Shown in pieces: positions 4,225 to 47,191 of a stretch of DNA of 48,980 bases; position 1 is the first letter of the stretch, and every line of letters begins with the position of its first letter. Made by a program: the position numbers and the translations under genes. The notes below the pieces were generated by a model that saw only the letters and a program-made list of their open reading frames with translations, did no database searches and was not told the origin of the DNA. The stretch lies in sequence record NC_105619.1; one strand, 5' to 3'. Source of the DNA: a phage.

Positions 4225-5337
4225 ATGAAGGCAAAGCAAAGATTCGATTCAGTAAAAATCAAGGCGCACTTTGATGATAACGGTTTTTTAGTTGACCGCC
4301 CAATCGTGGCGCGAATCGGCGCTCAGGTTTACAAAACGCCGCACGGCGATCGAGTTGAGTTCCGTCCGGCGTCCGAAGTTTTCAAGCAAGACTCCTTGCA
4401 AAGTTTTGCGGGGAAGCCAATTACTGTCGGTCACGTAACGGTAACTCCGCAGAATGCTAAGGACGTTGTTGTCGGGTCGTGTGCTGGCGCTGGTATTGCT
4501 TCAGGGGTTGGCGTTGAAGTTCCTTTGAGTATTTACAGCGACTACGCGATCAGCAAGGCTAAAGCAAAAGAAGCAGGCGAATTATCTGTTGGTTATACTT
4601 CGGTTGATATTGATAAGCCTGGTTGGGGTTCAAATGAGACTGGAGAATATATCTTCGAAGAGGATATGAAACAGGACGAAGCTCCGCCTGAAGGTTGGGT
4701 TAAATTTGACGCGGTACAGACCAATATCAAGGTCAATCATATTGCCCTAGTATTCAAAGGTCGTGCTGGAATTGCTAAATTAAATCTTGATGCCGAACAG
4801 GAATTTCCGTATGATAATAACGTTCAATCAACCAACGAGGACAAGCAGATGAAAAAAATTAAGATCGATTCAGTTGATGTGGAAGTAACCGAAGACGTTG
4901 CGAACCATATCGAAAAGTTAACCGCACAGATCGCTACCATTCAGGGCAAAGCTGACGGCTTCGAAGCAGAACGTGACGCGCTCAAGGTCAAGGTTGACTC
5001 TCTGCCGGAACTGGTAAAAGCAGAAGTGGAGAAGCAGAAAGCTGACGCAGCCGCACGCGCAGAAGTCACCGCAGTAGCAGAAACCGCAGGCGTTAAGCAT
5101 GACGGCCTTGAAATCAAAGACGTTAAGATCGCTGTTGTAAAAGCAATGCTGGACAAAGATGTGAGCGAAAAATCTGATGCATACATCGACGCTATGTTTG
5201 ATGTTGCTAAGGATTCTGATATTATGGCTATTCAGCGTAAAGCGGTAAAAGGCGACTCTATCGAAGACGGCAAGCCGGAAGAGAAAAACGACGCCGCACC
5301 TGTTACGCCAAATTCACGTTTAAGCAAAGTAATGTAA
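4225..5337 (+). CDS. capsid scaffolding protein (putative)
   Basis: Start at internal ATG with AGGAGA RBS; C-terminal Ala/Glu/Lys-rich coiled-coil-like region; position between head morphogenesis and capsid genes. Confidence 0.5.
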   Translation: MKAKQRFDSVKIKAHFDDNGFLVDRPIVARIGAQVYKTPHGDRVEFRPASEVFKQDSLQSFAGKPITVGHVTVTPQNAKDVVVGSCAGAGIASGVGVEVPLSIYSDYAISKAKAKEAGELSVGYTSVDIDKPGWGSNETGEYIFEEDMKQDEAPPEGWVKFDAVQTNIKVNHIALVFKGRAGIAKLNLDAEQEFPYDNNVQSTNEDKQMKKIKIDSVDVEVTEDVANHIEKLTAQIATIQGKADGFEAERDALKVKVDSLPELVKAEVEKQKADAAARAEVTAVAETAGVKHDGLEIKDVKIAVVKAMLDKDVSEKSDAYIDAMFDVAKDSDIMAIQRKAVKGDSIEDGKPEEKNDAAPVTPNSRLSKVM

Positions 5338-5348
5338 GGAGAAAAATT

Positions 5349-5825
5349 ATGGCACAGATTAACGCATCTTATCAGCGCGATATGGCGATCGCCCTTCCGG
5401 GTATGGTTGCAGATACTTCCAAGTACAACATCGACGGCGCTTGTGTCGTTAACGAAGGTGATGTTTTTGTTGGTGCTGCTGTTCAGGTTGTCCAGGCTCA
5501 GGCTGTTGATGGTCATAAACTTGTTAAGGCTATGGAAGCGTCTAAAGTACCGTACGGCGTAGCGATTCGTTCTCACTGGCAGACTGCCAACGCTCAAAAC
5601 CAGATGGTTTATGAAGAAGGCGGTGCAATCAACGTCATGACCTCCGGGCGAGTCTGGATGCTTTCCAAATCAGAAGAAGCACCAACTTTCGGAACCGCCG
5701 TTAAACTTGACGTTGACGGTCAAGAGAAATCTGATGGCACGATTGAAACTGCCTGGACTTACGCTGGCGGCTGGACTAAATACAAAGATATTCAGCTTGT
5801 AGAAGTTCAGTTGCATCAACTGTAA
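5349..5825 (+). CDS. capsid decoration-like protein, paralog 1
   Basis: N-terminus (..ALPGMVADTSKYNIDGACVV..GDV.VGAAVQVV) is paralogous to the N-terminus of the next ORF. Confidence 0.45.
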   Translation: MAQINASYQRDMAIALPGMVADTSKYNIDGACVVNEGDVFVGAAVQVVQAQAVDGHKLVKAMEASKVPYGVAIRSHWQTANAQNQMVYEEGGAINVMTSGRVWMLSKSEEAPTFGTAVKLDVDGQEKSDGTIETAWTYAGGWTKYKDIQLVEVQLHQL

Positions 5826-5885
5826 TTAGCGTTTAATATGGGGACTATCCTTTTTGGATGGTCCTTTTTTTATGGAGAAATAATT

Positions 5886-6653
5886 ATGGCTTACGAAAAT
5901 TTAATGTTGCGCCCGGCGTGTCCTGGAAATCTTTCCGATACTTCAACCTACAATATTGATGGTGCTTGCGTTGCGCAGGGTGATATTGAGTTCGGCTCGG
6001 CGGTACAGGTTATCGGGATCGTTGATGGTGTTAAAGTAGTCACGGCGCTTACTGATGGTGGAACTCCTTACGGTATAGCTTTCCGTTCCCAATATGAACA
6101 CCTGAGCGGTAAAATCTTAGACGGCGAAGTGTGCAACGTAGTTTCTCACGGTCGCATGTGGGCGCTTACTTCTCTTGATGAGGCTCCCGGCTTATTCTCA
6201 AAGTTGCAATTTGGATCTGGTGGCGTTGTTACTGGTGGATCTGGTTCCGTAGGTTGGACCTTCGCGGGTGGCTTTGTTAAGCATGAAGACGGCTACATCA
6301 TTGAGGTTCAGGTGAAACAAAATGCTTTCATCGTCCCACCGCCGCCGCCTCCAGTTGTTCTTGTTGAATCAGCTACGATCACTACCGACAAGGAAAGTCC
6401 TCAGCCGAACAACGTTACGATTCAGTGCGTAGCTAATGTTCTTCCGGTGAACGCTGATGATAAAACTGGCAAGTGGTCAATTGACGCCACCAACATTGCT
6501 ACTGTGGATCCTGACTCCGGTTTGGTTACTCCTGTAGGTGGAGAAGTCGTCGGTAATTTCAGTATTACCTGGACGGCTAATGATGCCAGCAAGACTAAGG
6601 CTACTATTGCTTATCGCGTCGAGGCAGTTCCAACTCCAGAAGATGAGTCATAA
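5886..6653 (+). CDS. capsid decoration-like protein, paralog 2, with C-terminal Ig-like (Big_2-type) domain
   Basis: Start at internal ATG (RBS GGAGAAA); N-domain paralogous to 5349..5825; PPPPPPVV linker then Big_2-like pattern (..VTIQCVANVLPVNADD..WSIDATNIATVDPDSGLVTPV..). Confidence 0.5.
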   Translation: MAYENLMLRPACPGNLSDTSTYNIDGACVAQGDIEFGSAVQVIGIVDGVKVVTALTDGGTPYGIAFRSQYEHLSGKILDGEVCNVVSHGRMWALTSLDEAPGLFSKLQFGSGGVVTGGSGSVGWTFAGGFVKHEDGYIIEVQVKQNAFIVPPPPPPVVLVESATITTDKESPQPNNVTIQCVANVLPVNADDKTGKWSIDATNIATVDPDSGLVTPVGGEVVGNFSITWTANDASKTKATIAYRVEAVPTPEDES

Positions 6654-6691
6654 CACAAAAACACTTTGACGCTTTAACAAAAAGTGCTATT
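6647..6691 (-). promoter_or_regulatory. reverse-oriented copy of the TAGCA-N5-TGTTA promoter module (antisense to late genes)
   Basis: On minus strand AATAGCACTTTTTGTTAA + 22 nt + TATGAC (preceded by TGt). Confidence 0.35.
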
Positions 6692-6696
6692 ATTGA

Positions 6697-6724
6697 AGCC
6701 GTGAACATAATCACGGCTTTTTTA
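6697..6724 (+). terminator. rho-independent terminator
   Basis: AGCCGTGA-acataa-TCACGGCT followed by TTTTTT. Confidence 0.7.
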
Positions 6725-6744
6725 TTAACTAAGGAGAAATAATT

Positions 6745-7704
6745 ATGGCTACTAAAAAATTTGATGAAGCAGACAAAAGCAATGTCGAAATGTATCTGAT
6801 CCAGGCTGGCGTAAAACAGGATGCAGCCGCAACAATGGGTATCTGGACCGCTCAGGAACTACACCGCATCAAAAGCCAGTCCTATGAAGAAGACTACCCG
6901 GTCGGCTCAGCTTTACGCGTATTCCCGGTTACAACCGAGCTTTCTCCGACCGACAAGACGTTTGAGTATATGACCTTTGATAAGGTTGGTACGGCTCAGA
7001 TTATCGCAGACTACACCGACGATCTTCCGCTGGTTGATGCCCTGGGTACTTCTGAATTTGGCAAGGTGTTCCGTCTTGGTAACGCGTACCTGATCTCAAT
7101 CGACGAAATCAAAGCGGGTCAGGCAACTGGTCGCCCACTGTCAACCCGCAAGGCGAGTGCGTGCCAGTTGGCGCATGATCAGCTTGTTAACCGCCTGGTG
7201 TTCAAAGGTTCTGCTCCGCACAAGATCGTGTCCGTGTTCAATCATCCGAACATCACCAAAATTACCTCCGGTAAGTGGATGAATGACGCAACTCCGAAGC
7301 CGGAAACGGCTGAAGCGGAATTGACTCAGGCGATCGAAACCATCGAGACGATTACTCGCGGTCAGCATCGTGCAACCAACATCCTGATTCCGCCGTCCAT
7401 GCGTAAGGTTCTGGCGATCCGTATGCCTGAAACTACCATGTCTTATCTGGACTATTTCAAGTCTCAGAATGCGGGTATCGAAATCGACTCTATCGCAGAG
7501 CTTGAAGATATCGACGGTGCGGGTACTAAAGGTGTGCTGGTGTACGAAAAAAATCCGATGAATATGTCCATCGAGATCCCGGAAGCATTTAACATGCTGC
7601 CAGCGCAGCCGAAAGACCTTCACTTTAAAGTGCCTTGCACCTCTAAGTGTACTGGTCTTACAATTTATCGCCCGATGACTATTGTCTTAATCACTGGCGT
7701 GTAA
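6745..7704 (+). CDS. major capsid protein
   Basis: 319 aa, strong RBS AAGGAGAAA, position after decoration/scaffold genes and before connector genes. Confidence 0.75.
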   Translation: MATKKFDEADKSNVEMYLIQAGVKQDAAATMGIWTAQELHRIKSQSYEEDYPVGSALRVFPVTTELSPTDKTFEYMTFDKVGTAQIIADYTDDLPLVDALGTSEFGKVFRLGNAYLISIDEIKAGQATGRPLSTRKASACQLAHDQLVNRLVFKGSAPHKIVSVFNHPNITKITSGKWMNDATPKPETAEAELTQAIETIETITRGQHRATNILIPPSMRKVLAIRMPETTMSYLDYFKSQNAGIEIDSIAELEDIDGAGTKGVLVYEKNPMNMSIEIPEAFNMLPAQPKDLHFKVPCTSKCTGLTIYRPMTIVLITGV

Positions 7705-7753
7705 TATTATAGGTGCTAACTTAGTTAGTCCCTTTTTTATTGGAGAAATCAAA

Positions 7754-8041
7754 ATGGCTAAAGAAAAAACTGTTGTTATCGTAAACGTTGGTGTAGCTCT
7801 TCAGATGTTCCGTCTTGAAGATGGTTCCTTTGCTCAAGTTCTTCCAGATGAAGAGGTCACGCTTCCGGCTTCCGTTCTTGATTTACCTGGCCTGCGTTGC
7901 TTAATTGCTCGCGAAGAAATCGAAGTTAAAGACGACAGTGCAACCAACCGCAAAATCCGCGATGAAATGGCAAAGATCACGAAGCCAGATCCGTGGGATA
8001 GCAAAAGCGTTAAAGAGCTTGAGGACGGCGGCGAATATTAA
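7754..8041 (+). CDS. hypothetical structural protein
   Basis: ORF with RBS GGAGAAA downstream of capsid gene. Confidence 0.4.
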   Translation: MAKEKTVVIVNVGVALQMFRLEDGSFAQVLPDEEVTLPASVLDLPGLRCLIAREEIEVKDDSATNRKIRDEMAKITKPDPWDSKSVKELEDGGEY

Positions 8042-8048
8042 TCATCAA

Positions 8049-8072
8049 GGCGCTCACGTAGCGCCTTTTTTT
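8049..8072 (+). terminator. rho-independent terminator
   Basis: GGCGCT-cacgt-AGCGCC followed by TTTTTTT. Confidence 0.65.
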
Positions 8073-8085
8073 ATGGGGGTAAATT

Positions 8086-8496
8086 ATGAATCAAGAAACT
8101 TTAATTGCAGTTATCGAGCAAATGCGAAAGCTGGTTCCGGCACTTCGCAAGGTTCCAGACGAAACGCTTTATGCGTGGGTAGAAATGGCTGAGCTTTTTG
8201 TATGCCAGAAGACCTTTAAAGACGCATACGTCAAAGCTCTCGCTCTTTATGCATTGCACCTTGCTTTCCTTGACGGGTCGCTAAAAGGTGAAGATGAGGA
8301 TCTTGAATCGTACTCACGACGCGTTACGTCATTCTCCCTGAGCGGTGAATTTAGCCAGACTTTCGGCGAGGTTACGAAAAACCAGTCAGGAAACACAATG
8401 CTTTCGACGCCGTGGGGTAAGATGTTTGAACAACTTAAAGCGCGACGCCGTGGTAGGTTCGCATTAATGACCGGACTCCGTGGAGGATGCCACTAA
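8086..8496 (+). CDS. head-tail connector / adaptor protein (putative)
   Basis: Position and size in the connector block; helical N-terminus. Confidence 0.45.
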   Translation: MNQETLIAVIEQMRKLVPALRKVPDETLYAWVEMAELFVCQKTFKDAYVKALALYALHLAFLDGSLKGEDEDLESYSRRVTSFSLSGEFSQTFGEVTKNQSGNTMLSTPWGKMFEQLKARRRGRFALMTGLRGGCH

Positions 8497-8867
8497 TGAA
8501 CTACTCACAAATTGAAAGAATGGCTCGCAAAGGCGTTGCTTTCTTCACAGATCCGTCAAGACCTATGAACCTGATAAAGGAAGGTGAATATGGATACGAT
8601 GAAAATGGATTCGAGATTCCACCAATGGAACAGGTTATTCCAATATCTGGAGCCACTCGCAGACCAAATGCTCGGGAGATTGACGGAGAAACAATACGCG
8701 CCTCCGACCTTTTGGGGATCTTCAATAATGATCATGAAATAAACGAAGGCGACTATATAGAGATTGACGGTGTTCGTCATGTTGTAGTTGACGCTCGTCC
8801 GGTTCAGGCGTCATTAGAACCTGTCGCCTATCGTCCAGTATTAAGGAGGGTATCAGTCGGTGGCTAA
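8487..8867 (+). CDS. head closure / head-tail joining protein (putative)
   Basis: Overlapping start, position in connector block. Confidence 0.45.
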   Translation: MPLMNYSQIERMARKGVAFFTDPSRPMNLIKEGEYGYDENGFEIPPMEQVIPISGATRRPNAREIDGETIRASDLLGIFNNDHEINEGDYIEIDGVRHVVVDARPVQASLEPVAYRPVLRRVSVGG

Positions 8868-9303
8868 TTATCAGATTCGTAGATTTCAAGGTGAGATTGA
8901 TGCGTGGATTAAGGCAGCAGAGAGCACTCTTGAGCACGCTATTGAGATATTTGTAAGAGATGTGCATAGCGCTCTTGTTAGCCGATCTCCTGTCGATACT
9001 GGGCGTTTTAAGGGTAACTGGCAGATAACTTTTAACGAAATACCCAGCTACGCATTAAACCGATATGATAAAACTGGCGGTGTAGTACGCAGTGAGGAAC
9101 AGACAAAGACTTATGGCATGTTCAGCCGTGGAGGTGCGATAACCTCGGTTCACTTTTCAAACATGTTGATTTATGCAAACGCACTTGAATACGGTCACTC
9201 ACAGCAAGCGCCAAGCGGCGTAGTAGGATTGGTGGCGTTGAGGCTGCGATCGTATATGTCTGATGCAATAAAGCAAGCAAGGAGACAACAAAATGCACTA
9301 TGA
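8860..9303 (+). CDS. neck / tail completion protein (putative)
   Basis: Position; overlapping translationally coupled ORF. Confidence 0.4.
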   Translation: MANYQIRRFQGEIDAWIKAAESTLEHAIEIFVRDVHSALVSRSPVDTGRFKGNWQITFNEIPSYALNRYDKTGGVVRSEEQTKTYGMFSRGGAITSVHFSNMLIYANALEYGHSQQAPSGVVGLVALRLRSYMSDAIKQARRQQNAL

Positions 9304-9691
9304 GTTATCAGCTGCGGCTAGATCCGCATTTCTGTCAAAGTACAGAGATTTTCCTCACTACATGGAAAACCGCAACTTCACACCACCGAAGGATGGCGGT
9401 ATGTGGCTTAGATTTAATTACATAGAAGGCGATACACGTTATCTATCCATTGACAGAAAATGCAAGTCTTACATTGCTATCGTGCAAATTGGAGTGGTTT
9501 TCCCTCCAGGATCAGGGGTTGACGAGGCAAGATTGAAAGCAAAAGAGATTGCTGATTTTTTCAAAGATGGTAAAATGCTTAACGTTGGTTATATTTTCGA
9601 GGGTGCAATCGTGCATCAAATTGTTAAACACGAAAGCGGGTGGATGATTCCGGTTCGCTTTACAGTACGAGTAGACACAAAGGAGACTTAA
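9293..9691 (+). CDS. tail terminator / completion protein (putative)
   Basis: Position immediately upstream of major tail protein. Confidence 0.4.
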   Translation: MHYELSAAARSAFLSKYRDFPHYMENRNFTPPKDGGMWLRFNYIEGDTRYLSIDRKCKSYIAIVQIGVVFPPGSGVDEARLKAKEIADFFKDGKMLNVGYIFEGAIVHQIVKHESGWMIPVRFTVRVDTKET

Positions 9692-9692
9692 T

Positions 9693-10361
9693 ATGCACTT
9701 ACCAAATGGCGCGCAAATTTTCGTGGAAACCTCTCGCGGAGAAGAGATCGAGGCGACCGCTGTCACTAACGCAAAAAATCCTGTTGCTACAGTTGAATCT
9801 AAGGGAGACTTGGCAAAAGGTGATTACGTTATTGTAACTCAGTCAACTTGGGCTAAGATGGTTAGTCGAGTACTAATTGTTACTGACGCTCAGGAAACAA
9901 GCATTACTCTCGCTGGAATTGACACTACTGATACTCTTGTTTTCCCGGCTGGCGGTACAATGAGCTTTGCAAAAATTACTGGCTGGACTGAGATTCCTTG
10001 CGTACAGGAGATTGGTCAGGACGGCGGCGAGCAGCAGTATTACACTTATCAGTGTTTGTCTGACGATAAAGAGCAGCAGATCCCGACGTTTAAGTCTGCA
10101 ATCTCGCTAACGTACACCTTCGCGCACGAATTTGATAACCCTATCTATCCTATTCTGCGTAAGCTGGATTCTTCTGGTCAGGTAACTGCGGTTCGGATGT
10201 ATGTTCCAAAAGCGAACGAGATGCGCATGTGGGCTGGTATCTTGTCTTTTAACGACATTCCATCTACGCAAGTAAACGAAATGGAAACGGTACAACTCGC
10301 CGTATCCCTGAAGGGTGATTTCACTTTCGTTTCATCCGCTCTGGCATCACCTGGTGCCTAA
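9693..10361 (+). CDS. major tail protein
   Basis: 222 aa ORF directly upstream of the chaperone and tape-measure genes; followed by strong terminator. Confidence 0.6.
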   Translation: MHLPNGAQIFVETSRGEEIEATAVTNAKNPVATVESKGDLAKGDYVIVTQSTWAKMVSRVLIVTDAQETSITLAGIDTTDTLVFPAGGTMSFAKITGWTEIPCVQEIGQDGGEQQYYTYQCLSDDKEQQIPTFKSAISLTYTFAHEFDNPIYPILRKLDSSGQVTAVRMYVPKANEMRMWAGILSFNDIPSTQVNEMETVQLAVSLKGDFTFVSSALASPGA

Positions 10362-10373
10362 ATCATATCCACA

Positions 10374-10408
10374 GGGGGCTTGCGCCCCCTTATTCATTTC
10401 TGTAAAAT
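10374..10408 (+). promoter_or_regulatory. terminator hairpin with embedded promoter (TTGCGC-N17-TAAAAT)
   Basis: GGGGGC-TTGC-GCCCCC hairpin; TTGCGC spans loop and stem, exactly 17 nt, then TAAAAT preceded by TG. Confidence 0.5.
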
Positions 10409-10409
10409 C

Positions 10410-10454
10410 ATCGTATCAACTTTGCACTATTCTCTTTTAACAAAAAGTGCTATT
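10410..10454 (-). promoter_or_regulatory. reverse-oriented copy of promoter module (antisense to major tail protein gene)
   Basis: Minus strand AATAGCACTTTTTGTTAAAA + 22 nt + TACGAT (TGa-TACGAT). Confidence 0.35.
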
Positions 10455-10474
10455 AACCAATCAGGAGAAATATC

Positions 10475-10792
10475 ATGGCTAAATTTAATTTCGTTCTTGG
10501 TCAACTTCCAGACTTCAAACTTCCAGTCACCTTCACCATGCCTAACGGTGAAGATGCAACGATCATTTTCACTGTACGCCACCTTTCCAGTAAAGAAGTT
10601 CAGGATATGTATGCCAACCAGGGAGAAATGAACGACAGCGAGTTCATTACCAAGATCGCGTCAGGATGGAACCTTGAAGAAGAATTTAACGAAGAAAATG
10701 CGCGAAAACTGGTTCAGTATTATCCTTCAGCAGCGTACAACCTGACAGCGACTTACATCAAGGCTCTCGCCGGACACCGCGCAAAAAACTAA
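10475..10792 (+). CDS. tail assembly chaperone (lambda gpG-like)
   Basis: Small ORF upstream of tape measure ending GCA AAA AAC TAA, i.e. slippery heptamer A_AAA_AAC at 10783-10789. Confidence 0.65.
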   Translation: MAKFNFVLGQLPDFKLPVTFTMPNGEDATIIFTVRHLSSKEVQDMYANQGEMNDSEFITKIASGWNLEEEFNEENARKLVQYYPSAAYNLTATYIKALAGHRAKN

Positions 10793-11109
10793 AAAAGGCG
10801 GTCTATCTGTTATATCAGAAGCCGCCAACAGAGGAACAATTGCGATCGGTTGGCTTAAGTCTTTCCGACTATGAAGACGAGGAGCCTGAAACGATAATTG
10901 GCGACGCTGAAATGGTGAAGGCTTGGAATGTTTTTACATCAATGCTCACTCAGTGGAGAAGTTCAGGAGCTGGCGCTTACGGTCTTGATTATAATGTTTT
11001 GCCTATGTTGTTTAAAATCTATAAAATAGAAGATGAAGAACTGGCATTGCAGGACGTTAGGATCATGGAAGCGAAAGCGCTTGAAATGATTGCTAAGCAG
11101 AATAACTAA
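10789..11109 (+). CDS. -1 frame extension of tail chaperone (gpGT-like fusion product via programmed frameshift)
   Basis: -1 frame is open from the slippery site and continues ..KKLKKAVYLLYQKPPTEEQLRSVGLSLSD.. into track ORF 10840..11109. Confidence 0.55.
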   Translation, partial: LKKAVYLLYQKPPTEEQLRSVGLSLSDYEDEEPETIIGDAEMVKAWNVFTSMLTQWRSSGAGAYGLDYNVLPMLFKIYKIEDEELALQDVRIMEAKALEMIAKQNN

Positions 11110-11131
11110 GCCGCCGTTTGGCGGTTTTTTT
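11110..11131 (+). terminator. rho-independent terminator
   Basis: CCGCC-gttt-GGCGG followed by TTTTTTT. Confidence 0.6.
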
Positions 11132-11148
11132 GTATATAAGGGGGGTAT

Positions 11149-14022
11149 ATGGTTGATAAGGTAGCAGGTCTATCGCTTGATGTTGATGTGTCGACAGTAC
11201 AGCGCGCCGTCAAGTCATTGAAAGAGTTTTCAAAAGCTAACGACCAAGCCGCTGACTCTATGGGGTCTTTAATCAATGAGGCCGAGGTTGCAAAACAGAA
11301 GGCTAAAGAACACGCTGAGCAACTTAAGCGCCAGCGCAAAGAGTACGAGGCTGTAGAAAAGGCAATCGATCCTACAGTATCAAAAATGGAAAGGCTGAAG
11401 ATTGCATCTCAGCAGCTTGATAAACTCTGGCAAAAGGGCTTTGTTCCAGATGAAACATTTTTCCGTTTGGGTGAAATGCTGGACATGCAAAATGCAAAAC
11501 TTGCTCGCAGCCGGGCCATGCTTACTGAAGAGGGGCAGGCAGCATTGCAGGAAGCGAAAGCAAAAGAGCAGGCAGCAGCGAAAAACAAAGCGTTCATGGA
11601 TTCCCTTAACAGTCAGGTTAACGCTATTGGCAAAACTCACGCAGAGTTAATGGAACTGAAAGCGGCTCAGCTTGGGATATCAAATGAAGCAGCGCCACTG
11701 ATCGCAAAACTGAAAGAGCAGGGTCGAGCCATGAATGCCGCAGGTATTAGCGCGGGGCAATATAGGCAGGCAATGCGAATGCTTCCTGCACAGATTACCG
11801 ACGTCGTTACATCTCTTGCGTCCGGTATGCCAGTTTGGATGGTTGCCATCCAGCAAGGCGGTCAAATTAAGGACTCGTTCGGAGGGATCGGGAATACGTT
11901 TAAGGTATTGCTCAGCTATATTAATCCGGTCACAGTTGGCGTTGGTGTTCTTGTCGGCTCTTTAGGTCTTCTTGCGAAAGCCGGTTATGACTCTTACAAG
12001 TCAATAACTGATATGCAGAAGGCTCTTGTTGAGACTGGAGGTTACGCAGGAGTCACGGCTGAAGAACTTGATTCTGTTGCTAAAAAGGTGGCTCAGACGA
12101 GCAACTCAACAATTTCAAGCATTCGTGAGATTGTTACTGAACTTGCCAGTACGGGGAAGTATACGCGAGAGCAGATTCAGAACATCACAAAGGCTACCGC
12201 TGAGTGGTCGACAGTAACCGGAAAATCAGCAAGTAAAATCATCGCTGAGTTCGATAAAATCGCAAGCGATCCTGTAAAGGGTCTGGCTAAACTTAACGAG
12301 CAATACAATTTTTTAGAAAAAGGACAGCTGACATACATCGATACTCTAAGCCGTACTAAGGGTGAAACAGAGGCAGTGTCTGAAGCCACGAAATTATTCG
12401 CCGATGTAATGGAAAAACGAATGAAGTCGATCGCTGATAATGCTACCCCTCTGGAAAAAATGTGGAAAGATATTAAGCAATGGGCTTCTGATGCGTGGGG
12501 ATGGGTTGGGGATCATACGCTCGGAGCGTTAAACCTGATTATTGACGTAGTTCAAGGTACGGTAATTCAGGTGAAAATGATTCTTGCTAAGGGTGATGAG
12601 TACATCTCAAACTTTATCGCATCTGCAATTAAGGCTACACAGTCTCTGCCTGGCGTGAGTGATTTTGGTGCTGATGTACTAAAGGAACAGGAGAATATTG
12701 TAAAAAGTTCTCGTGACAACTACGATCAGTTAGCTTCAGAGCTTGATGCCATTAACGCCCGTGTTGAAAAAGGTGAGATGGGATACATTGAAGCAATGAA
12801 GCAGCGCCGTACTCTTGAAAAGCAGTATAGCCAGGAAACTAAGGACGCTATCAAGGAAGAAGCTAAAGAGATCGAAAAGCGAAACCGTGAACGAAATAAG
12901 CAGTCGAAAATTTTACGCTCACCTACAGAGCAATTCGATAAGGAGTTAATTTCACTCAAAGCGCAGCTTAAGGTTTTGCAGGAGCACAAGGAGATCGGGC
13001 AAAAAATATCAGCACAGAGAAAGGCGCTTTTTACGACTGAGGCTACAATTTCTGTTCTTCGAGAAGCTAGTTCTAAGCGTCAGCTATCTGCGGAAGAAAA
13101 AGCACTACTTGCAAACCAAGAGAAGGTTTTAGAGCTTGCGAAACAAAAGGCTGAGATTGGCGATCAGATTGTTAAGCAGCAGCAGTTGAACGCACTTACC
13201 GATAAATCACTGAAATTTGTCAATGATTTGACGGCAGCTACAGAGCAGCTAAACGCGTCTCGCGGGATGAGCACCCGAGAAATGGAACGACAAGCGGAAC
13301 TGGCTAAGATCACCACTGACTATATTAATGCAGGTGGCAGCGAAGGAGATGAAAAACTCCAGAAAATGATCAAGGCACAAAATGATTACTATGCTGCGGA
13401 AGATGCCAAGCGTGCTGACTGGTTAGCTGGTGCTGAAAGCGCATTTGCAGATTACGGCGATTCTGCAATGGATATGTACGGCAACGTGTATGATATCGCG
13501 TCAAGTTCACTTAACGGAATGAGTGATATGATGACCCAATTCCTTACTACAGGTAAGGCAAATTTTGAGGACTTTGCGAAAAATATCATTAGCATGATTA
13601 TCAAGATGATTGCTCAGATGGTAATCTTCAATACGATCTCAGGCATGACGGGAGGTAAGACATGGAGTTTTGCAAGTGGATTGACCTCTAGCGCTTCTGC
13701 GGCATCACAGGCAACTCCTACGCCTGCCGTCTCTGGTTTTAGGTCTTTATCTTCAGGCGTTGCCGTTACCTCGCTTGCTGCCGCTGCGGGTAGTGTTGCA
13801 ACCTCTGGATTTAACGCATCTAAATCCGCACCGAAGGCAGTGAACCAGTCAGCAGGCGGGACGGTCGTTGACGTTAGTGGAATGGAGGTTAGAGTTGACA
13901 ACGGCTCAGATCCGAGGGGGATTTCTCAGGGTGTAGAAATGATGTTCAAAAAAATGATTCGTGAGTCTTGTTCGCAGGGCGGCGAGGTTTATAATTACAT
14001 TCAGGAAAAAACAGGAGGTTAA
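11149..14022 (+). CDS. tail tape measure protein
   Basis: 957 aa, long coiled-coil-rich N-terminal part, hydrophobic Gly/Ala/Ser-rich C-terminal segment, position after chaperone. Confidence 0.9.
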
Positions 14023-16572: not shown

Positions 16573-16608
16573 ACCCGCCTTGCGCGGGTTTTTTTTCGCC
16601 TGTATAAT
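16573..16608 (+). promoter_or_regulatory. terminator hairpin with embedded promoter (TTGCGC-N17-TATAAT)
   Basis: Identical hairpin CCCGCCTTGCGCGGG + T8; TTGCGC 16580-16585, 17-nt spacer, consensus TATAAT 16603-16608. Confidence 0.6.
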
Positions 16609-16644
16609 GAGTCCACCGATAAATAGCACAAAAAGGTAAACATC

Positions 16645-26868: not shown

Positions 26869-27321
26869 TTAACTAAAAATGCTATTGGTCGTCCCGATAT
26901 CTTCCTTCTTCACCACTCGCATAAACTTCTTGTTCTTGCATCGCTTCTCAAGGCACTTACCGTTACCGTCAAACTTGAGGTCGAATCGCAACCATGCCGC
27001 GCGGTATCCTTTACACCCCTGGCGACGGTAAGCGCGATGCGCAGCTTCAGCACCTTGCCATGAAATCATATTGCGTTCTTTCCAGCCCTGCACCGTCTGA
27101 TTGCTAACCTTCAGAGCCTTTGCGCAGGCCGCCGGGCCGCCGTAATATTCGATAAGGGCATCAAGTCTCGCTCGCAGTCCGGCGCGCGTTTCTTCTTTAT
27201 GAATATAGAACCCGCAACGCTGGCGAGGCTTTTTATCTTTACCGCGCCGTGTTCCGTTGTTACCATTGATGTGACGTTTATCGATTTCACCAGTTGATTC
27301 TGCGATACGTTGAATACTCAT
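26869..27321 (-). CDS. hypothetical basic protein with HTH-like segment
   Basis: ..AACAKALKVSNQTVQGWKERN.. resembles an HTH recognition helix; Lys/Arg-rich. Confidence 0.3.
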   Translation of the reverse strand: MSIQRIAESTGEIDKRHINGNNGTRRGKDKKPRQRCGFYIHKEETRAGLRARLDALIEYYGGPAACAKALKVSNQTVQGWKERNMISWQGAEAAHRAYRRQGCKGYRAAWLRFDLKFDGNGKCLEKRCKNKKFMRVVKKEDIGTTNSIFS

Positions 27322-27332
27322 CTTGATTCCCC

Positions 27333-27377
27333 TATAGCACTTTTTGCTAAAAACGTTTACTTTATGCCGTGTATTAT
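27333..27377 (+). promoter_or_regulatory. early promoter module (TAGCACTTTTTGCTA box + 22 nt + TATTAT) overlapping divergent minus-strand promoter
   Basis: Arms AACGTTTAC/GTAAACGTT flank the -10; minus strand reads TTGAAT-N17-TATAAT over the same -10. Confidence 0.5.
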
Positions 27378-27408
27378 AGCGTAAACGTTACAACGATTCA
27401 AAGGATTA

Positions 27409-34450: not shown

Positions 34451-34858
34451 TCAAATTCTTCTTTCGTAAGCTGGAGTCTTGCGCACAATTCGACGTTCCG
34501 ATCTATCAACGTTTCTACGTTCGCCAAACAATTCCTCATCACTCATTTCTCCAATGTGCATCATTTCCCACGTATATCGATTATTGTAGCCATCAATACA
34601 CATCAGCTTCATCATTACCGGGCGCTTAATCTTTCCCTTGCACCAGTAAAATCCATCCTTACGATCCAAGTAACCATCAGTAACGCAACGAGCGCAAAAC
34701 TCCTTAGATAGCGCGCTTGTAAATTCACGGCGAGTCATTCCGGCGGCCTTAGAGAATCGCTCACTTTCCTTGTGGGCGTATATAAATTTCGCTATGTGCT
34801 GCCGAGTGTATTTGTCGTAACCTTCGCAGAACCTGAACAGATCTAAAAGAAGAAGCAT
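34451..34858 (-). CDS. hypothetical protein
   Basis: ORF immediately downstream of 34863..36431. Confidence 0.4.
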   Translation of the reverse strand: MLLLLDLFRFCEGYDKYTRQHIAKFIYAHKESERFSKAAGMTRREFTSALSKEFCARCVTDGYLDRKDGFYWCKGKIKRPVMMKLMCIDGYNNRYTWEMMHIGEMSDEELFGERRNVDRSERRIVRKTPAYERRI

Positions 34859-37983: not shown

Positions 37984-38200
37984 TATTCCCCCTAACCAGT
38001 CGGGATAGCTTTCGCGCTTCATCAATGATAACAGGTTCAAACCGTTCGAGTCGAACGCGGAACGCGTTCATAAATCCTTCGTTATTCTTCAGTAGTTCGA
38101 ATGCGTCTGTGGCTTCAATGGCGCTATTCCCCATGTAGGCAACTACGCTCTTTTGCGTTTTGCGTGAGATCGCAACTACGCGGTAAATATTATCATTCAT
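37940..38200 (-). CDS. hypothetical protein
   Basis: Start at internal ATG (residue 7) with RBS AGGAGG. Confidence 0.4.
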   Translation of the reverse strand: MNDNIYRVVAISRKTQKSVVAYMGNSAIEATDAFELLKNNEGFMNAFRVRLERFEPVIIDEARKLSRLVRGNNEPHLQNHNEVTED

Positions 38201-38564
38201 GCAATGCCTCCTTAACACGATCCGCTACACATGAGTTGACGGTGATTGAATAGTTAGCAACTCCCCACAGTGCAATATTGCCTAACTCAGTACGCATAGA
38301 TGGGTTGTTTAGCTGGATGATTACCTCTCCAGTGTCTTTATCGACGAAACTAGACACACCCAAACGGTCCACCACGCGCGTTACGCGGTTAACGCACTCC
38401 ATTGCATCACTTACACCATAATAAGCACTTAGAGCGGCTCTCACGGCCTTCTCTTGCTTGTTGTAAATCTTGCGCGCGATGTTCTCGATCGCTACGCTTT
38501 CTTTCTCGTCAGTCTGGATTGCCGTGCTGGCTGAGAAGTCCAGATCAGTGAATTGCTGAAACAT
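38193..38564 (-). CDS. hypothetical protein
   Basis: Start at internal ATG (residue 16) with RBS GAGGAA. Confidence 0.4.
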   Translation of the reverse strand: MFQQFTDLDFSASTAIQTDEKESVAIENIARKIYNKQEKAVRAALSAYYGVSDAMECVNRVTRVVDRLGVSSFVDKDTGEVIIQLNNPSMRTELGNIALWGVANYSITVNSCVADRVKEALHE

Positions 38565-38595
38565 GATTATTTCCTCGCTTGCTGTTGATGGGATA

Positions 38596-38640
38596 ACTAT
38601 ACCAGCCATCTAGGGCGTGCGTTTAACAAAAAGTGCTATT
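38596..38640 (-). promoter_or_regulatory. early promoter module (minus strand)
   Basis: AATAGCACTTTTTGTTAAAC + 22 nt + TATAGT; arms GATGG/CCATC flank -10. Confidence 0.5.
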
Positions 38641-40053: not shown

Positions 40054-40075
40054 TTTTTAGCAAAAAGTGCTATCG
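40054..40075 (-). repeat. orphan copy of the box (GATAGCACTTTTTGCTAAAAA) without recognisable -10 at +22
   Basis: Read on minus strand within second AT-rich control region. Confidence 0.4.
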
Positions 40076-42845: not shown

Positions 42846-42886
42846 GCACGAATTGTCAAATGGTGATTCGTCCTGACTGGTACAAT
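42843..42886 (+). promoter_or_regulatory. early promoter module (variant box)
   Basis: TAAGCACGAATTGTCAAA + 22 nt + TACAAT; arms GGTGATT/AATCACC. Confidence 0.45.
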
Positions 42887-42916
42887 CACCACATCAACCA
42901 CTAAGAGGAAATCATT

Positions 42917-43423
42917 ATGTTGAAATTAGAAGATGTCAAATTCCCGATCAAATTTATCAGCATTGGATGTGGTGAAATTACGTTCACCAGTGAAGATAAG
43001 GGAATATGGGCCACTGATGAGGTGTCGCAGCTTAAGCTGGAATGGTTTATCGCCAGACATAACGAAGTGAATAAAGAAAATTCACCAAATAAGGACTACC
43101 ACTACATTATGAGTGACAATCAGAATGCTTACAGCTTGTATGATAGTTGGAAGATTGAAGGCTCAATATTCAAAGCTGCAAAGCCAGAAATCAAGCCATC
43201 GCTACAGTGCACTCAGATCGAGAACATGCCATTGAGCGCGACGCTAAAGGGTGTCCAACTTGATAGCGAATCCTGGATCGATATTACCGCCACGCCTAAA
43301 GCTATTGAGGTACACGATGATGTGGTGATTATCCTGTTGCATTACGGCAGCTTTAAGCACAAGACTGTATCAGGTGAAATCAGCATTAAGCGCGGAACGC
43401 TTGTACGCTATGAGGTGAAATAA
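42917..43423 (+). CDS. hypothetical protein
   Basis: 168-aa ORF, RBS AAGAGGAAA. Confidence 0.5.
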   Translation: MLKLEDVKFPIKFISIGCGEITFTSEDKGIWATDEVSQLKLEWFIARHNEVNKENSPNKDYHYIMSDNQNAYSLYDSWKIEGSIFKAAKPEIKPSLQCTQIENMPLSATLKGVQLDSESWIDITATPKAIEVHDDVVIILLHYGSFKHKTVSGEISIKRGTLVRYEVK

Positions 43424-43572
43424 TGGCTGCATGGGTTTTGATTATCTTAATGAGTACATGGCCGGATCACGTATACATGGAAAGTCAGCAATCATGCGAC
43501 AAGGCTCGGGAGGTAATTGCAGAGAATAAGCCGTTCGGATATGAAGTAAAAACGATGTGCGTTAAACGATAG
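43423..43572 (+). CDS. hypothetical small protein (49 aa), TAATG-coupled
   Basis: ATG overlaps upstream TAA; hydrophobic N-terminus. Confidence 0.3.
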   Translation: MAAWVLIILMSTWPDHVYMESQQSCDKAREVIAENKPFGYEVKTMCVKR

Positions 43573-43612
43573 CACGAATTGCTAAACCTTCCGCAAGGCC
43601 ATTTGATATAGT
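43568..43612 (+). promoter_or_regulatory. early promoter module
   Basis: GATAGCACGAATTGCTAAACC + 22 nt + TATAGT; arms AAGGCCA/TGGCCTT. Confidence 0.55.
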
Positions 43613-43652
43613 GGCCTTATTGAAGCATGGCAACCAATCAGAGGAATCAGCT

Positions 43653-43952
43653 ATGAAAATCAGATTAACCAGTAGCTACTTTAACCGTGAATCTTTCAAT
43701 CAGTACATAATCACAGATGGAATGAATCCAGATATCGTCCTTGATGTATCTCACAACATTGGCGACGTAATGTTTGTATCAGCAACTGAGCTTGCAAAGT
43801 ACGCAAAGCCAGAACATCGTCACCTGGCAGATCCGCAATTAAGCGATGGAAAGGTTACGGATTACGCATTCACCAAAGGTGAGTATGAAATCGTGAGATC
43901 TGGACCTTTCAGGTTCTGGAATAAACTTAAATCAGGGGAGTTATTCAAATGA
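43653..43952 (+). CDS. hypothetical protein
   Basis: Start at internal ATG after AACCAATCAGAGGAAT. Confidence 0.45.
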   Translation: MKIRLTSSYFNRESFNQYIITDGMNPDIVLDVSHNIGDVMFVSATELAKYAKPEHRHLADPQLSDGKVTDYAFTKGEYEIVRSGPFRFWNKLKSGELFK

Positions 43953-44236
43953 GAAAAACTCATAAGTTAAAAATTGCCCCGGTCCATTTCATCGGTGTAA
44001 TGAACGGCACAAAAACGGCAGAGTTCCGCATTAATGACCGCAACTTCCAGCCTGGCGATATCCTGGAGCTATGCGAGTTCGATCGGGATGAGTTTACCGG
44101 GTGGGAGGTACATGCCAGGGTATCCGATGTTACAGACGTGACGCCATACATCAATCGCGGGTATGACGAGCAAGAATGCGACTTCACGCAATACGTGATG
44201 TTATCAATAAAACCTTACAGAAAGGTTAGACCATGA
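43949..44236 (+). CDS. DUF3850-like (ASCH/PUA-like fold) protein
   Basis: Pattern KTHKLKIAPVHFIGVMNGTKTAEFRINDRNFQPGDILELCE resembles DUF3850 consensus (recalled, not searched). Confidence 0.45.
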   Translation: MRKTHKLKIAPVHFIGVMNGTKTAEFRINDRNFQPGDILELCEFDRDEFTGWEVHARVSDVTDVTPYINRGYDEQECDFTQYVMLSIKPYRKVRP

Positions 44237-44871
44237 AATTTGAGTGCGTATCAAGTAGCGGATCTGGTTTCAAGTGGGGTAAGGTCTACGAAGGCGCTCG
44301 CGTCAATGACAATAGATTCGTCATCACGGATGAGCGCGGTAGAAATGTTAACGTTGTCCGGCGTCACGAATACCAGGAAATATTCCTTCCGTATGGCGGT
44401 AGCTCAAAATATATCTTCCATCGAATCGTGGATGGTGTTAAATTTAAAGACGTAATCGAAGCAATCAACCAACTGCATAATAAAGAGGTCAAATTTATGA
44501 AATTCGAATGTATCAGTGATAACACCAAAAAATTTACCGTTGGCAAAATCTACGACGTGCCTACTGAGCACGCAAAGCACACTGTAGCACTGACCGACGA
44601 CACGGGCCGCCACCGCATTGCAACCGTAACGCACAACGGTGAAGGTCTTCGCTGGAATAGCGGCGGCACTAAGTTCGCAACGTTCGGAAAGAAGCGCAAG
44701 CGTACTTTCTGCGTCAATGGCAAGGTTACAGCGAACAAGATCCACAACGTCAAGCCGTCAGAAGTTGACCGTAAGCCAGCGACGAAGTTTGAAGAGAAGG
44801 AAGATTTGTCTGGTCTGGCTATCGCTCTTGTTCTCCTTGTTGCTTCGATTTCGCTGCTGCTCATCATGTAA
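44233..44871 (+). CDS. hypothetical tail-anchored membrane protein with internal tandem repeat
   Basis: Two ~90-aa repeats each starting MKFEC(V/I)S..(K/T)..GK(V/I)Y; C-terminal TM ..LSGLAIALVLLVASISLLLIM. Confidence 0.5.
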   Translation: MKFECVSSSGSGFKWGKVYEGARVNDNRFVITDERGRNVNVVRRHEYQEIFLPYGGSSKYIFHRIVDGVKFKDVIEAINQLHNKEVKFMKFECISDNTKKFTVGKIYDVPTEHAKHTVALTDDTGRHRIATVTHNGEGLRWNSGGTKFATFGKKRKRTFCVNGKVTANKIHNVKPSEVDRKPATKFEEKEDLSGLAIALVLLVASISLLLIM

Positions 44872-44878
44872 TGCTAAT

Positions 44879-44912
44879 GGGGAATCGGCTCTGAACGGTT
44901 CCCCTTTCTTTT
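44879..44912 (+). terminator. putative terminator
   Basis: GGGGAA..TTCCCC arms followed by TTTCTTTT. Confidence 0.45.
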
Positions 44913-45019
44913 GGAGAAAACACTATGCCAGACTTTTCTAACTGGAATAACGAGCCGCCATCATTTCAGGAGTTGCTATTTTGCCTCCTGATCCTAACAT
45001 TATCTCTTAAGGGTGTTTT

Positions 45020-45238
45020 ATGGCTACTATCATGACAGCAGAAGATGCAGCACGCGACGCAGTGGAAGGGATGCGCCCAAATAGCTCCAGAATCGCCCAC
45101 TACTACAAATCTGATGTGTCGGCAGTGCAATTGGTCCATGAAATTTTAAGGCTCCCACAAGTCGATTCAGCGCGCGTGGTGACGTGCTTAAAAAATTATT
45201 TTTGCATCACTATTAAAACGAATAGCACGAATTGCTAA
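45020..45238 (+). CDS. hypothetical protein (uncertain)
   Basis: 72-aa ORF whose 3' end runs into the promoter box. Confidence 0.25.
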   Translation: MATIMTAEDAARDAVEGMRPNSSRIAHYYKSDVSAVQLVHEILRLPQVDSARVVTCLKNYFCITIKTNSTNC

Positions 45239-45265
45239 AACCTATCAAGGGGAATGCGCTATGAT
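45221..45265 (+). promoter_or_regulatory. early promoter module
   Basis: AATAGCACGAATTGCTAAAAC + 22 nt + TATGAT; arms GGGGAAT/ATTCCCC. Confidence 0.55.
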
Positions 45266-45355
45266 TCCCCTACACCAACAAACGAGGAATCACTAATGAA
45301 ACACTTAATTTGCATTGAAACGCCTAACGATGAATACACTCTTCACGGAATATGA

Positions 45356-45742
45356 ATGTTCAAAGGTCACTACATGACAGCAAGCATTCATGATTCGCGT
45401 CTATGCGATGGCGATCTGGTGATTACATCAAAAGAAGTAAATCCGTACATTATGCAGAATCTTGGCGATAACGAATATATGGCCTACGGCTGCAACGCGG
45501 TGTACAAGCATATCAAGATCCGCAAGCGTGTCGTGCGTGCATTCAAGAAGATTGCAATGAAATACTGGAAGATGAGCAAGAAGGACGCCGGACGCTGGGC
45601 GCGCAATGTTGCTGACTCGTACTTCTATCGTAACGGTGAGTCATGCTACTTCCTGATCGATGAAATTATGGAAAACTACGGCGGCGACTTCGGTCAGTGT
45701 AACTTTGACGATTGGGCTGACTATGAGATCAGTTGTTGGTGA
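45356..45742 (+). CDS. hypothetical protein
   Basis: 128-aa ORF preceded by 19-codon mini-ORF with RBS GAGGAA (ATGAATG junction). Confidence 0.45.
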   Translation: MFKGHYMTASIHDSRLCDGDLVITSKEVNPYIMQNLGDNEYMAYGCNAVYKHIKIRKRVVRAFKKIAMKYWKMSKKDAGRWARNVADSYFYRNGESCYFLIDEIMENYGGDFGQCNFDDWADYEISCW

Positions 45743-45785
45743 TAGCACGAATTGCTAAAACTTGCTCAAGGGCATTTGTTAGAAT
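45741..45785 (+). promoter_or_regulatory. early promoter module
   Basis: GATAGCACGAATTGCTAAAAC + 22 nt + TAGAAT (TGt extended); arms AAGGGCA/TGCCCTT. Confidence 0.55.
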
Positions 45786-45825
45786 GCCCTTCGTTGAGTT
45801 AAGCAACCAATCAGAGGAATAAATC

Positions 45826-46437
45826 ATGGATAAAATCACAATTTGGGGCCAGACAATCAACCTGTTTCTCGGTACTCGCCGCGTGGCAATCTTTGACTTC
45901 GACGGAACACTGAGTGACGGCTCAAAACGTCTTCACCTGCTACCGACGAAAGATTTGCACTTGACGGAAAGCTGGTCTGAGTTCAACCGCGCGGCAATAT
46001 TTGACAATCCTATACGTAGTACGATTGATGTGATGAACTCTATGTTTGCCGCTGGGTATCATGTGATTATTTTAACCGGGCGAAGCGATGAGGTGCGTTA
46101 CGCATCTGAGTTATGGCTTAAGCATCACGGCGCGCGATATGACTACTTAGTCATGAGGCCGCATACCGACAACCGGAAAGACACGGTAATGAAAGAAGAG
46201 GCGGTGCGCGCGATCGGCATTGATAACATTCTGGCAGCCTGGGATGACTCACCGAAAATTATTCCATTATTCCGATCGCTTGGAATAACCACGTATGCCG
46301 TAGTTGACTATGGCGATAACGTTCACGATCATTTAAAATCTCACGGGGTGGATGGGGTTTGCAATCATGAACCATCTGAGCCGCTACCGCCATTTGGCGA
46401 TAAAATATGCATTAAGTGCAAGGAGTTATTGAAGTGA
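45826..46437 (+). CDS. HAD-superfamily phosphatase (polynucleotide-kinase 3'-phosphatase-like)
   Basis: Motif I ..VAIFDFDGTL.. (DxDGT), motif II ..IILTGR.., later ..AWDDS.. Confidence 0.6.
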   Translation: MDKITIWGQTINLFLGTRRVAIFDFDGTLSDGSKRLHLLPTKDLHLTESWSEFNRAAIFDNPIRSTIDVMNSMFAAGYHVIILTGRSDEVRYASELWLKHHGARYDYLVMRPHTDNRKDTVMKEEAVRAIGIDNILAAWDDSPKIIPLFRSLGITTYAVVDYGDNVHDHLKSHGVDGVCNHEPSEPLPPFGDKICIKCKELLK

Positions 46438-46545
46438 ACCTGTACGAATTTATTGCAGCACATCCGGTATTGACGGTTATCATCCTGTTAATCATCAATC
46501 ACACTATCATCAATGTGGCAAAATTATTTTTAGGGAGATACTAAC

Positions 46546-47118: not shown

Positions 47119-47158
47119 CACGAATTGCTAAAACGTCGATGTGGTGATTTGATATAGT
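47114..47158 (+). promoter_or_regulatory. early promoter module
   Basis: AATAGCACGAATTGCTAAAAC + 22 nt + TATAGT; arms GTCGATG/CATCGAC. Confidence 0.55.
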
Positions 47159-47191
47159 TACCTCATCGACAACCAAGAGAGACAAATCGAA

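Follow-up and report, generated by a model that had tools for sequence, protein, structure and literature searches.

A marbox-like repeat lies reversed at two predicted late promoters of a T1-like phage

Introduction

Why should two copies of a repeated sequence box point against the genes around them, when the early-region copies in the same phage genome all run with theirs? The question arises in sequence record NC_105619.1, which comes from a T1-like phage of the genus Tunavirus, family Drexlerviridae, and which we analysed over its whole stretch of 48,980 nucleotides (the window). The box, ATAGCAC-N3-TTG-Y-TAAA, occurs about 23 times in the window, and only two copies are opposed to the local genes, at 6673-6691 (site 1) and 10436-10454 (site 2), both within the late operon. 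An earlier note on this DNA proposed that both are early promoter modules firing antisense into late genes, and offered as an alternative that the box acts there as an operator in either orientation; we find that the alternative fits better. The best explanation, to which we assign a probability of roughly 55%, is that the box would be a protein-binding site of the shape of the Escherichia coli marbox, where the host stress regulators MarA, SoxS and Rob bind, and that its effect would be set by its position relative to the promoter, the bound factor activating early promoters and blocking those of late genes.

T1, a classic phage, is also notorious for contaminating laboratories, and we know of no regulator of its transcription programme. 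A literature search found no transcript maps or start-site data for T1-like phages, and genes and boxes are called early here from gene content alone. Throughout, the argument is built on sequences, spacings, conservation and consensus matches, and what is said of binding, direction of regulation, timing and start sites is prediction from these. The window has the gene order of T1, and T1, pSf-2 and relatives are 91-95% identical to it across 5800-10800. Position 1 is the ATG of terS, and the ends of the window are contiguous judging by the T1 sequence. The late operon runs on the + strand over 1-20094, beginning with terS and ending with the tail fibre, and is followed by blocks of alternating direction with replication, recombination, lysis and many small genes.

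The element itself is already published, as a repeat of unexplained function in phage TLS. The 2024 re-annotation of TLS describes 18 intergenic 21-nucleotide direct repeats with the consensus aaATAGCACnnnTTGnTAAAA, running along the direction of transcription about 76 nucleotides ahead of the start codon, for which roles as stoperators, enhancer sites or UP elements were proposed, and states that similar repeats occur in T1, Rtp and Rogue1 (PMC11447400). The window box fits this consensus and is the same element. One TLS repeat, DR7, is placed on the opposite strand just before a terminator and the capsid gene (PMC11447400, Table S1); it is the homologue of site 1, and DR8 is the homologue of a box at 16623-16643 before the tail-fibre gene. 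Being reversed, sites 1 and 2 depart from the description of the TLS repeats as following transcription, and DR7 does likewise; the TLS paper mentions neither marboxes nor the reversed copy (PMC11447400). The marbox reading, and the control of late promoters by reversed copies, appear to be new; a full-text search, with the 2004 T1 genome paper lying outside it, found no published link between T1-like phages and MarA, SoxS, Rob or marboxes.

Results

The box and its orientation

Taken as a 19-mer, the box has 13 copies in the window at up to three mismatches, against 0.03 expected. All 19 early-region copies are co-directional with the local genes, and in 18 of these 19 modules a -10 hexamer (TATAGT, TATTAT, TATCAT, CATAAT or similar) lies 19-21 nucleotides past the AAA that ends the box. 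The box is asymmetric at its invariant positions and its orientation is constant at the activating sites, a combination that fits a monomer with two different reading heads. We take as reference the module of the helicase gene:

27333-27378, + strand, reference module of the helicase gene: box, 20 nucleotides, TATTAT

At both reversed sites the + strand reads TTTAACAAAAAGTGCTATT, which gives the box AATAGCACTTTTTGTTAAA on the minus strand. The earlier note had set the two boxes in whole modules at 6647-6691 and 10410-10454, and both were recovered there, opposed to the + strand genes and with the minus-strand hexamers it gave, TGtTATGAC at site 1 and TGaTACGAT at site 2, each exactly 20 nucleotides from the box (its figure of 22 was counted from a 17-nucleotide box). 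Its description of the two as having the full architecture of an early module holds for the box, the spacing and the TGn-preceded hexamer, and is weakened by the T at -7, which site 1 lacks, and by the module hairpin, which both lack. A hairpin lies around or just ahead of the -10 in 16 of the 19 co-directional modules (RNAfold z -2.5 to -5.6) and is absent at the two reversed copies (z +0.7 and +0.9).

Likeness to the marbox

The 15-mer marbox consensus derived from chromatin immunoprecipitation is GCAHWWWWTGYYAAA (PMC6900184). It is found 13 times exactly in the window, and 21 times at no more than one mismatch against 1.38 expected. The longer consensus, quoted as the 20-mer A(notG)RGCACRWWNNRYYAAA(notG)N (PMC2453137), is matched with 0-2 mismatches by all but one of the 22 boxes compared, five of them perfectly. 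The marO marbox, verified in MG1655, has one mismatch to the same 20-mer. About 20 of the phage boxes are at least as close to the consensus as marO is, and this suggests that a host protein may bind them. Both reversed boxes are exact matches to the 15-mer, with two mismatches to the 20-mer at site 1 and one at site 2.

The likeness extends to spacing. The micF promoter is activated by MarA (PMC2787020), and in MG1655 it has its marbox at -51 to -32, followed by 18 nucleotides, TAGAAT, 7 nucleotides and the +1. The co-directional modules (20-mer, 18 nucleotides, -10) have exactly this layout, and both reversed sites have the same spacing on the minus strand (20-mer, 18 nucleotides, hexamer). 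Like the phage modules, the class II promoters activated by MarA, SoxS or Rob, such as micF, carry a forward asymmetric marbox over the -35 region, then 18 nucleotides and a -10, and have no good -35; the micF marbox reads ACAGCACTGAATGTCAAAAC and the phage box ATAGCACGAATTGCTAAAAC. The marbox centre in class II promoters ranges from -36 to -55, overlapping the -35 region (PMC12052159), and the geometry of the phage modules, and of sites 1 and 2 on the minus strand, falls within that range. The conserved, usable -10 of class II promoters, with A at -11 and T at -7, is present at site 2 and missing at site 1. Unlike the class II promoters of E. coli, the phage modules come to about 20 copies in one 49-kb genome, serve phage genes, and mostly have a hairpin at the -10.

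Other identities for the box were considered and set aside. By eye, a sigma-54 promoter (TGGCAC-N5-TTGC) has its GG/GC spacing 2 nucleotides short and a normal -10 downstream; a sigma-28 promoter (TAAA-N15-GCCGATAA) gives partial matches only, in few modules; TTGTTA or TTGCTA as a -35 would need a 22-bp spacer; and neither an UP element nor an IHF site explains the invariant GCAC. In a symmetric dimer operator the dyad would be broken at invariant positions. A scan of viral contigs for the box gave mostly single chance matches among the matches listed.

Site 1, ahead of the major capsid gene

The features at site 1 are as follows:

5838-6653, + strand, Ig-like decoration gene
6647-6652, minus strand, '-10' hexamer TATGAC, overlapping the TAA stop of the decoration gene
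6650-6665, + strand, upstream element ATAACACAAAAACACT, with an A5 tract at 6657-6661 found in 100% of 41 distinct relatives
6666-6693, + strand, PMCP, sigma-70 type promoter of the major capsid gene, predicted from conservation and a promoter scan
6671-6690, minus strand, reversed box as 20-mer marbox ATAGCACTTTTTGTTAAAGC, 2 mismatches to the 20-mer consensus
6695-6726, + strand, intrinsic terminator between PMCP and the capsid gene, stem at 6695-6720
6745-7704, + strand, major capsid gene

The reversed box lies inside a predicted forward promoter. PMCP consists of a -35 TTGACG (6666-6671), a 16-bp spacer, a TG (6685-6686) and a -10 TATTAT (6688-6693), with a predicted start near 6700, and the box supplies its spacer, its TG and the first three bases of its -10. 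In the promoter scan it is the top + strand match in 5000-12000 (10/12, with TG), and the records of T1 and SA30RD carry a promoter annotation for it. We compared 63 related loci from viral contigs, with capsid-protein identity falling from 99% to 57%. Together with the window they make 64 scanned sequences, and 61 of these have a reversed box 60-80 nucleotides ahead of the capsid gene. Among the 41 distinct relatives both the TTG of the -35 (TTGCAC, TTGACG or TTGAAC, with a 16-bp spacer) and the TG are 100% conserved, and the -10 reads TATCAT, TATTAT or TATATT, a one-base shift compensating where the box has drifted. The spacer positions are themselves 90-100% conserved, across subfamilies. 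This is more than a plain sigma-70 spacer needs, and counts for a protein bound at site 1. The sequence at 6650-6665 is probably an UP-like element of PMCP.

The minus strand gives a different picture. TATGAC has C at -7, and only 2 of the 41 distinct relatives have T there; the TA that is conserved in this hexamer is so because it belongs to the stop codon of the upstream gene. We judge, from the alignment, that TATGAC is not a conserved promoter element. Since the conserved signals are all on the + strand and the minus hexamer is unconserved, site 1 is best read as a forward capsid promoter with no conserved antisense promoter.

A marbox within a promoter spacer is repressive at pbpG (PMC12052159). 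The pbpG and rob promoters share with site 1 a marbox between the -35 and the -10 (here 6671-6690 inside TTGACG(6666)-16-TATTAT(6693)), which at site 1 is reversed. Repression through a core-promoter marbox is also reported for rob, purA and hdeA (Schneiders and Levy 2004, 2006). In sequence, site 1 is like the rob promoter, ...CAAAAAATGCTATTAT, and an alignment of the two (rob sequence ...AAAAAAACACTGAATGCTAAAACAGCAAAAAATGCTATTAT) scores 31 against 16.3 +/- 2.6 for shuffled sequences, a score reached by 1 shuffle in 2000. The phage site is a far better match to the consensus than the rob site and belongs to a capsid gene, which would by this likeness be repressed.

The terminator stem starts 2-5 nucleotides past the PMCP -10 in most lineages examined, so that the predicted start near 6700 falls within the 5' arm of the terminator. 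We infer that PMCP transcripts escape a terminator that stops transcripts arriving from upstream. In the Klebsiella-phage group the terminator lies upstream of the capsid promoter instead.

Site 2, after the major tail gene

At site 2 two predicted promoters abut:

9693-10361, + strand, major tail gene
10373-10400, + strand, terminator after the major tail gene, with the -35 of P(+)2, TTGCGC (10380-10385), in its loop
10380-10408, + strand, P(+)2, predicted forward promoter for the chaperone, tape-measure and tail-tip genes, TTGCGC-17-TAAAAT (-10 at 10403-10408)
10410-10418, minus strand, extended -10 of P(-)2, TGaTACGAT, predicted start near 10403
10434-10453, minus strand, reversed box as 20-mer marbox ATAGCACTTTTTGTTAAAAG, 1 mismatch to the 20-mer consensus
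10475-10792, + strand, chaperone gene

The minus strand here is conserved in the manner of a promoter. In 25 distinct relatives the T at -12, the A at -11 and the T at -7 are invariant, the positions -13, -10, -9 and -8 are free to vary, and the hexamer stands 20 nucleotides from the box without exception (25/25). A TG at -15/-14 is found in 22 of the 25, and the remaining three have better hexamers (TATCAT, TAGCAT and TATCTT). Invariant key bases, a variable middle and a fixed spacing are the pattern of a working extended -10, and so the leftward promoter P(-)2 is likely to be real. Of the two antisense promoters proposed, conservation thus supports the one at site 2 only, where TGnTAnnnT is kept. 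Reading leftward, P(-)2 would face the terminator hairpin, and its RNA would be antisense to the major tail gene at the 3' end. This transcript would reach the hairpin, which has no proper U tract on the minus strand, in about 10 nucleotides. The sole minus-strand open reading frame downstream of P(-)2 is at 10107-10295 (62 amino acids, TTG start), and no Rfam RNA family was found in 5800-10900. The antisense RNA from site 2 is likely real, judging by the conserved extended -10, and may be short.

The forward promoter is equally well kept. P(+)2 has a predicted start near 10415; its -10 reads TAAAAT, TAGAAT or TACAAT in 28 distinct relatives, and a TTGNNN, usually the TTGCGC in the terminator loop, lies exactly 17 nucleotides upstream in 27 of the 28. 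Lineages that have no box at site 2 retain a -10-like element past the terminator. In AHP24 (Rogunavirinae), which has the box at neither site, TTCACA-17-TATAAT occupies this position and is annotated as a promoter. As the forward promoters are present in box-less lineages, they would be ancestral and the reversed boxes add-ons. Relative to P(-)2 the reversed box has the class II position; relative to P(+)2 it covers about +21 to +39. The two -10 elements abut on opposite strands, with predicted starts about 12 bp apart and facing away from each other, so that a polymerase on either promoter should exclude a polymerase on the other.

The -35 of a restart promoter lies in the loop of the preceding terminator both here, as TTGCGC at 10380-10385, and at 16580-16585, and as TTCACA in AHP24 (locus L204, 7881-7909). 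This compact overlap of terminator and promoter recurs across the family.

Forward boxes in the late operon

Two further boxes belong to the late operon and are forward:

16623-16643, + strand, forward degenerate box AAATAGCACAAAAAGGTAAAC, after a terminator and TTGCGC-17-TATAAT
start at 16645, + strand, tail-fibre gene
48946-48964, + strand, forward box lying past the early-operon terminator and 16 nucleotides before the terS ATG

With only 16 nucleotides from the box at 48946-48964 to the ATG there is no room for a -10, and the box at 16623-16643 overlaps the ribosome-binding site of the tail-fibre gene. All four late-operon boxes, two reversed and two forward, lie in or just downstream of + strand promoters and away from the activating position for these, and all 19 early boxes are at the activating position. 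The occurrence of late boxes of both orientations at forward promoters favours an operator that works irrespective of orientation, the alternative that the earlier note had raised. Both forward late boxes stand right after terminator-plus-promoter junctions, no more than 16 nucleotides from the next ribosome-binding site or start codon, and both arrangements are conserved in T1.

Candidate binding proteins

The phage appears to have no MarA of its own. A tblastn search with MarA and SoxS found no AraC-type protein encoded by the phage (all hits at E = 0.57 or worse), and none of 20 open reading frames had an AraC domain by Pfam; the protein with a double helix-turn-helix that would mark a phage-encoded AraC/MarA-type activator system was thus not among them. 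The phage does encode a Cro/C2-like regulator, a helix-turn-helix protein of 150 amino acids (26869-27321, minus strand) with a weak match to P22_Cro. It is a core gene of the family, found in 824 phage records with about 50% identity across subfamilies, and because every family member has it, its presence cannot separate a host factor from a phage factor. A locus search with this regulator returned only close relatives. The two other annotated helix-turn-helix proteins, at 34451-34858 and at 38193-38609, bear no relation to one another, and no solved structure matched them by sequence. The regulator has its own predicted promoter, TTGAAT-17-TATAAT, which the helicase module overlaps on the opposite strand.

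A partial inverted repeat, TAGCA-N5-TGCTA, lies within the box with its centre near -42. It adds little support for a phage-encoded binder, however, since the marbox consensus is already palindromic in part. On the consensus matches and the micF and rob likenesses, host MarA, SoxS or Rob is somewhat the better bet as the binder, and the Cro/C2-like regulator, which is less likely, the main alternative.

Discussion

How one box could act in two ways

If a single factor binds all these boxes, its effect would follow from where each box lies in its promoter. At the roughly 19 early and middle clusters the forward box is at about -50 to -31, in place of a -35 and 18 bp upstream of the -10, where a bound factor would activate as in the class II arrangement. 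In the late operon the boxes would work against conserved sigma-70 promoters, at which transcription starts anew past a terminator. At site 1 a factor bound in the spacer of PMCP and over its TG motif would block RNA polymerase, as at rob and pbpG. At site 2 the box and the extended -10 would recruit polymerase to P(-)2, in mutual exclusion with P(+)2, and the short antisense RNA would be a by-product or an added brake. At the terS and tail-fibre boxes a factor at or just past the start sites would hold the promoters off. The late promoters would then open as the factor decays or is titrated by replicating genomes, each with about 23 sites.

Several points weigh against this reading. A small monomer at +21 to +39 would be a poor roadblock, and the proposed logic of site 2 leans on a competition between predicted promoters; all the start sites are predictions. 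The Rogunavirinae keep both late promoters without boxes, which makes the boxes dispensable. In unstressed cells Rob is mostly sequestered, and MarA and SoxS are scarce. In addition, two relatives in the Tempevirinae carry host labels outside the enterobacteria: Motto (Pseudomonas aeruginosa), which has the box TAGCACTTTTTGCTAAAACA at locus L205, 1170-1192, and Vc1 (Vibrio cholerae), 84% identical across the region, both of which keep the regulator-helicase arrangement. If these labels are correct, a host factor restricted to enterobacteria becomes less tenable; the nearest relatives of both are on Salmonella, Citrobacter and Escherichia, and mislabelled hosts are plausible. Finally, the binder could be the Cro/C2-like regulator, which the family has as a core gene; it would then sit roughly where lambda cI does at PRM.

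This last point leads to the first of the rival explanations, that the same scheme of early activation and late blocking is run by the Cro/C2-like protein from its own sigma-70 promoter, and that the likeness to the marbox is coincidence or mimicry. Phage-specific repeats are usually bound by phage proteins, every family member has the regulator, whose own leader contains a box, and the box is retained in Motto. The inverted repeat near -42 recalls the centring of lambda cI at PRM; it loses its force as independent support given the palindromic marbox consensus, and as an operator its dyad is broken at invariant positions, half of the copies having T where symmetry needs C. Chance would then have to account for the likeness to rob as well as for the agreement with the marbox in sequence, orientation and exact spacing. 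We regard this explanation as doubtful.

We consider it improbable that both reversed modules are working early promoters whose antisense RNAs pair or collide with the late transcripts of the decoration and major tail genes. The box, the 20-nucleotide spacing and the TGn-preceded hexamer are present at both sites, and the extended -10 of site 2 is conserved as in a working promoter. This is offset by the hexamer of site 1, which has no T at -7 either in the window or in 39 of the 41 relatives, by the missing hairpin at either site against 16 of 19 co-directional modules, and by the transcript of site 2, which would meet the terminator hairpin within about 10 nucleotides, in a region without an Rfam family. 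The two other late boxes, moreover, are forward and incapable of giving antisense RNA.

That the reversed sites are unbound, the box having been reused as raw material for promoters (its reverse complement contains TGcTAT) or left as a recombination scar, would account for the TG and -10 bases that it lends to the forward promoter of site 1 and for the Rogunavirinae doing without it at both sites, but is very improbable given that spacer positions unread by RNA polymerase are 90-100% conserved across subfamilies and that the site 2 box, which adds nothing to P(+)2, is conserved with a precisely spaced -10 on the opposite strand.

Comparison with other phage systems

The marbox-type reading, in which position sets the effect, has a parallel in lambda cI at OR, where one protein activates PRM from about -42 and represses PR, and where opposing promoters share a control region as we propose here. 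Unlike the cI sites, the phage boxes are asymmetric and spread genome-wide; they belong to a virulent phage, and a host protein may be what binds them. The middle promoters of T4 (MotA/AsiA) and the late promoters of Mu (Mor/C) resemble the phage modules in having a box in place of the -35 at a fixed spacing from a normal -10; the T4 MotA box has its centre near -30 and depends on phage proteins, and no homologues of MotA/AsiA or Mor/C were found in this phage. The stoperators of mycobacteriophage L5 are likewise present in many asymmetric copies across the genome. They act inside transcribed regions, in contrast to the phage box with its fixed 19-21 nucleotides to the -10 in 18 of 19 modules and at site 2, and this fixed distance from box to promoter rules against an L5-type stoperator.

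A wider picture, to which we would give somewhat less than even odds, is that about 20 phage promoters are wired to host MarA, SoxS or Rob by class II marboxes that come close to perfect, and that marboxes, two of which are reversed, are also set on the late promoters inside the operon, one factor turning the early genes on while holding the capsid and tail genes off until it is titrated or decays. Phage development would then be tuned by the stress signals to which Mar, Sox and Rob respond, among them bile salts, salicylate and oxidants. Should the boxes be marboxes, a virulent phage would run its whole early programme on a host stress regulon, with an early-to-late switch built from one site differently placed, and antibiotic and stress responses through mar, sox and rob would be tied to the success of the phage, which bears on combinations of phage and antibiotic. 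Even with a phage regulator as binder, the reversed boxes would mark control points of the capsid and tail promoters.

Other features of the early modules

The hairpins of the co-directional modules (22906-47118; for example 43587-43618, 45240-45271 and 47133-47170) are inverted repeats that differ in sequence between modules, with the -10 hexamer either within the loop or immediately 3' to the hairpin. The predicted start comes after the 5' arm, and the hairpin can therefore fold only in read-through RNA or in single-stranded DNA. It may be a terminator or processing hairpin of the upstream gene that the module's own transcripts escape.

At the helicase module, a 9-bp inverted repeat, AACGTTTAC...GTAAACGTT (27352-27395), flanks two overlapping -10 elements on opposite strands, the + strand TATTAT for the helicase gene and the minus-strand TATAAT, with TTGAAT 17 nucleotides upstream, for the Cro-like regulator. 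The predicted starts of the two genes are about 18 bp apart, and the box sits in the leader of the regulator. The arrangement is a possible autoregulatory switch.

Subtypes of the box group by region (42846-47118 versus the rest of the window). The GAA-type box, ATAGCACGAATTGCTAAA, is a perfect 20-mer marbox and is confined to the right-hand block of small early genes; TAA-type boxes are at 30869, 32857, 37506 and 48950, and TTT-type boxes elsewhere. These subtypes may be classes of affinity or timing. The box at 40056-40074 is the sole co-directional copy without a recognisable -10 at 19-21 nucleotides (GAACCG stands there), and may be inactive or differently used. In the open reading frame listed at 38193-38609 (minus strand, 138 amino acids), a module -10 and a ribosome-binding site lie just ahead of an internal ATG (MFQQF...), at which the gene probably begins.

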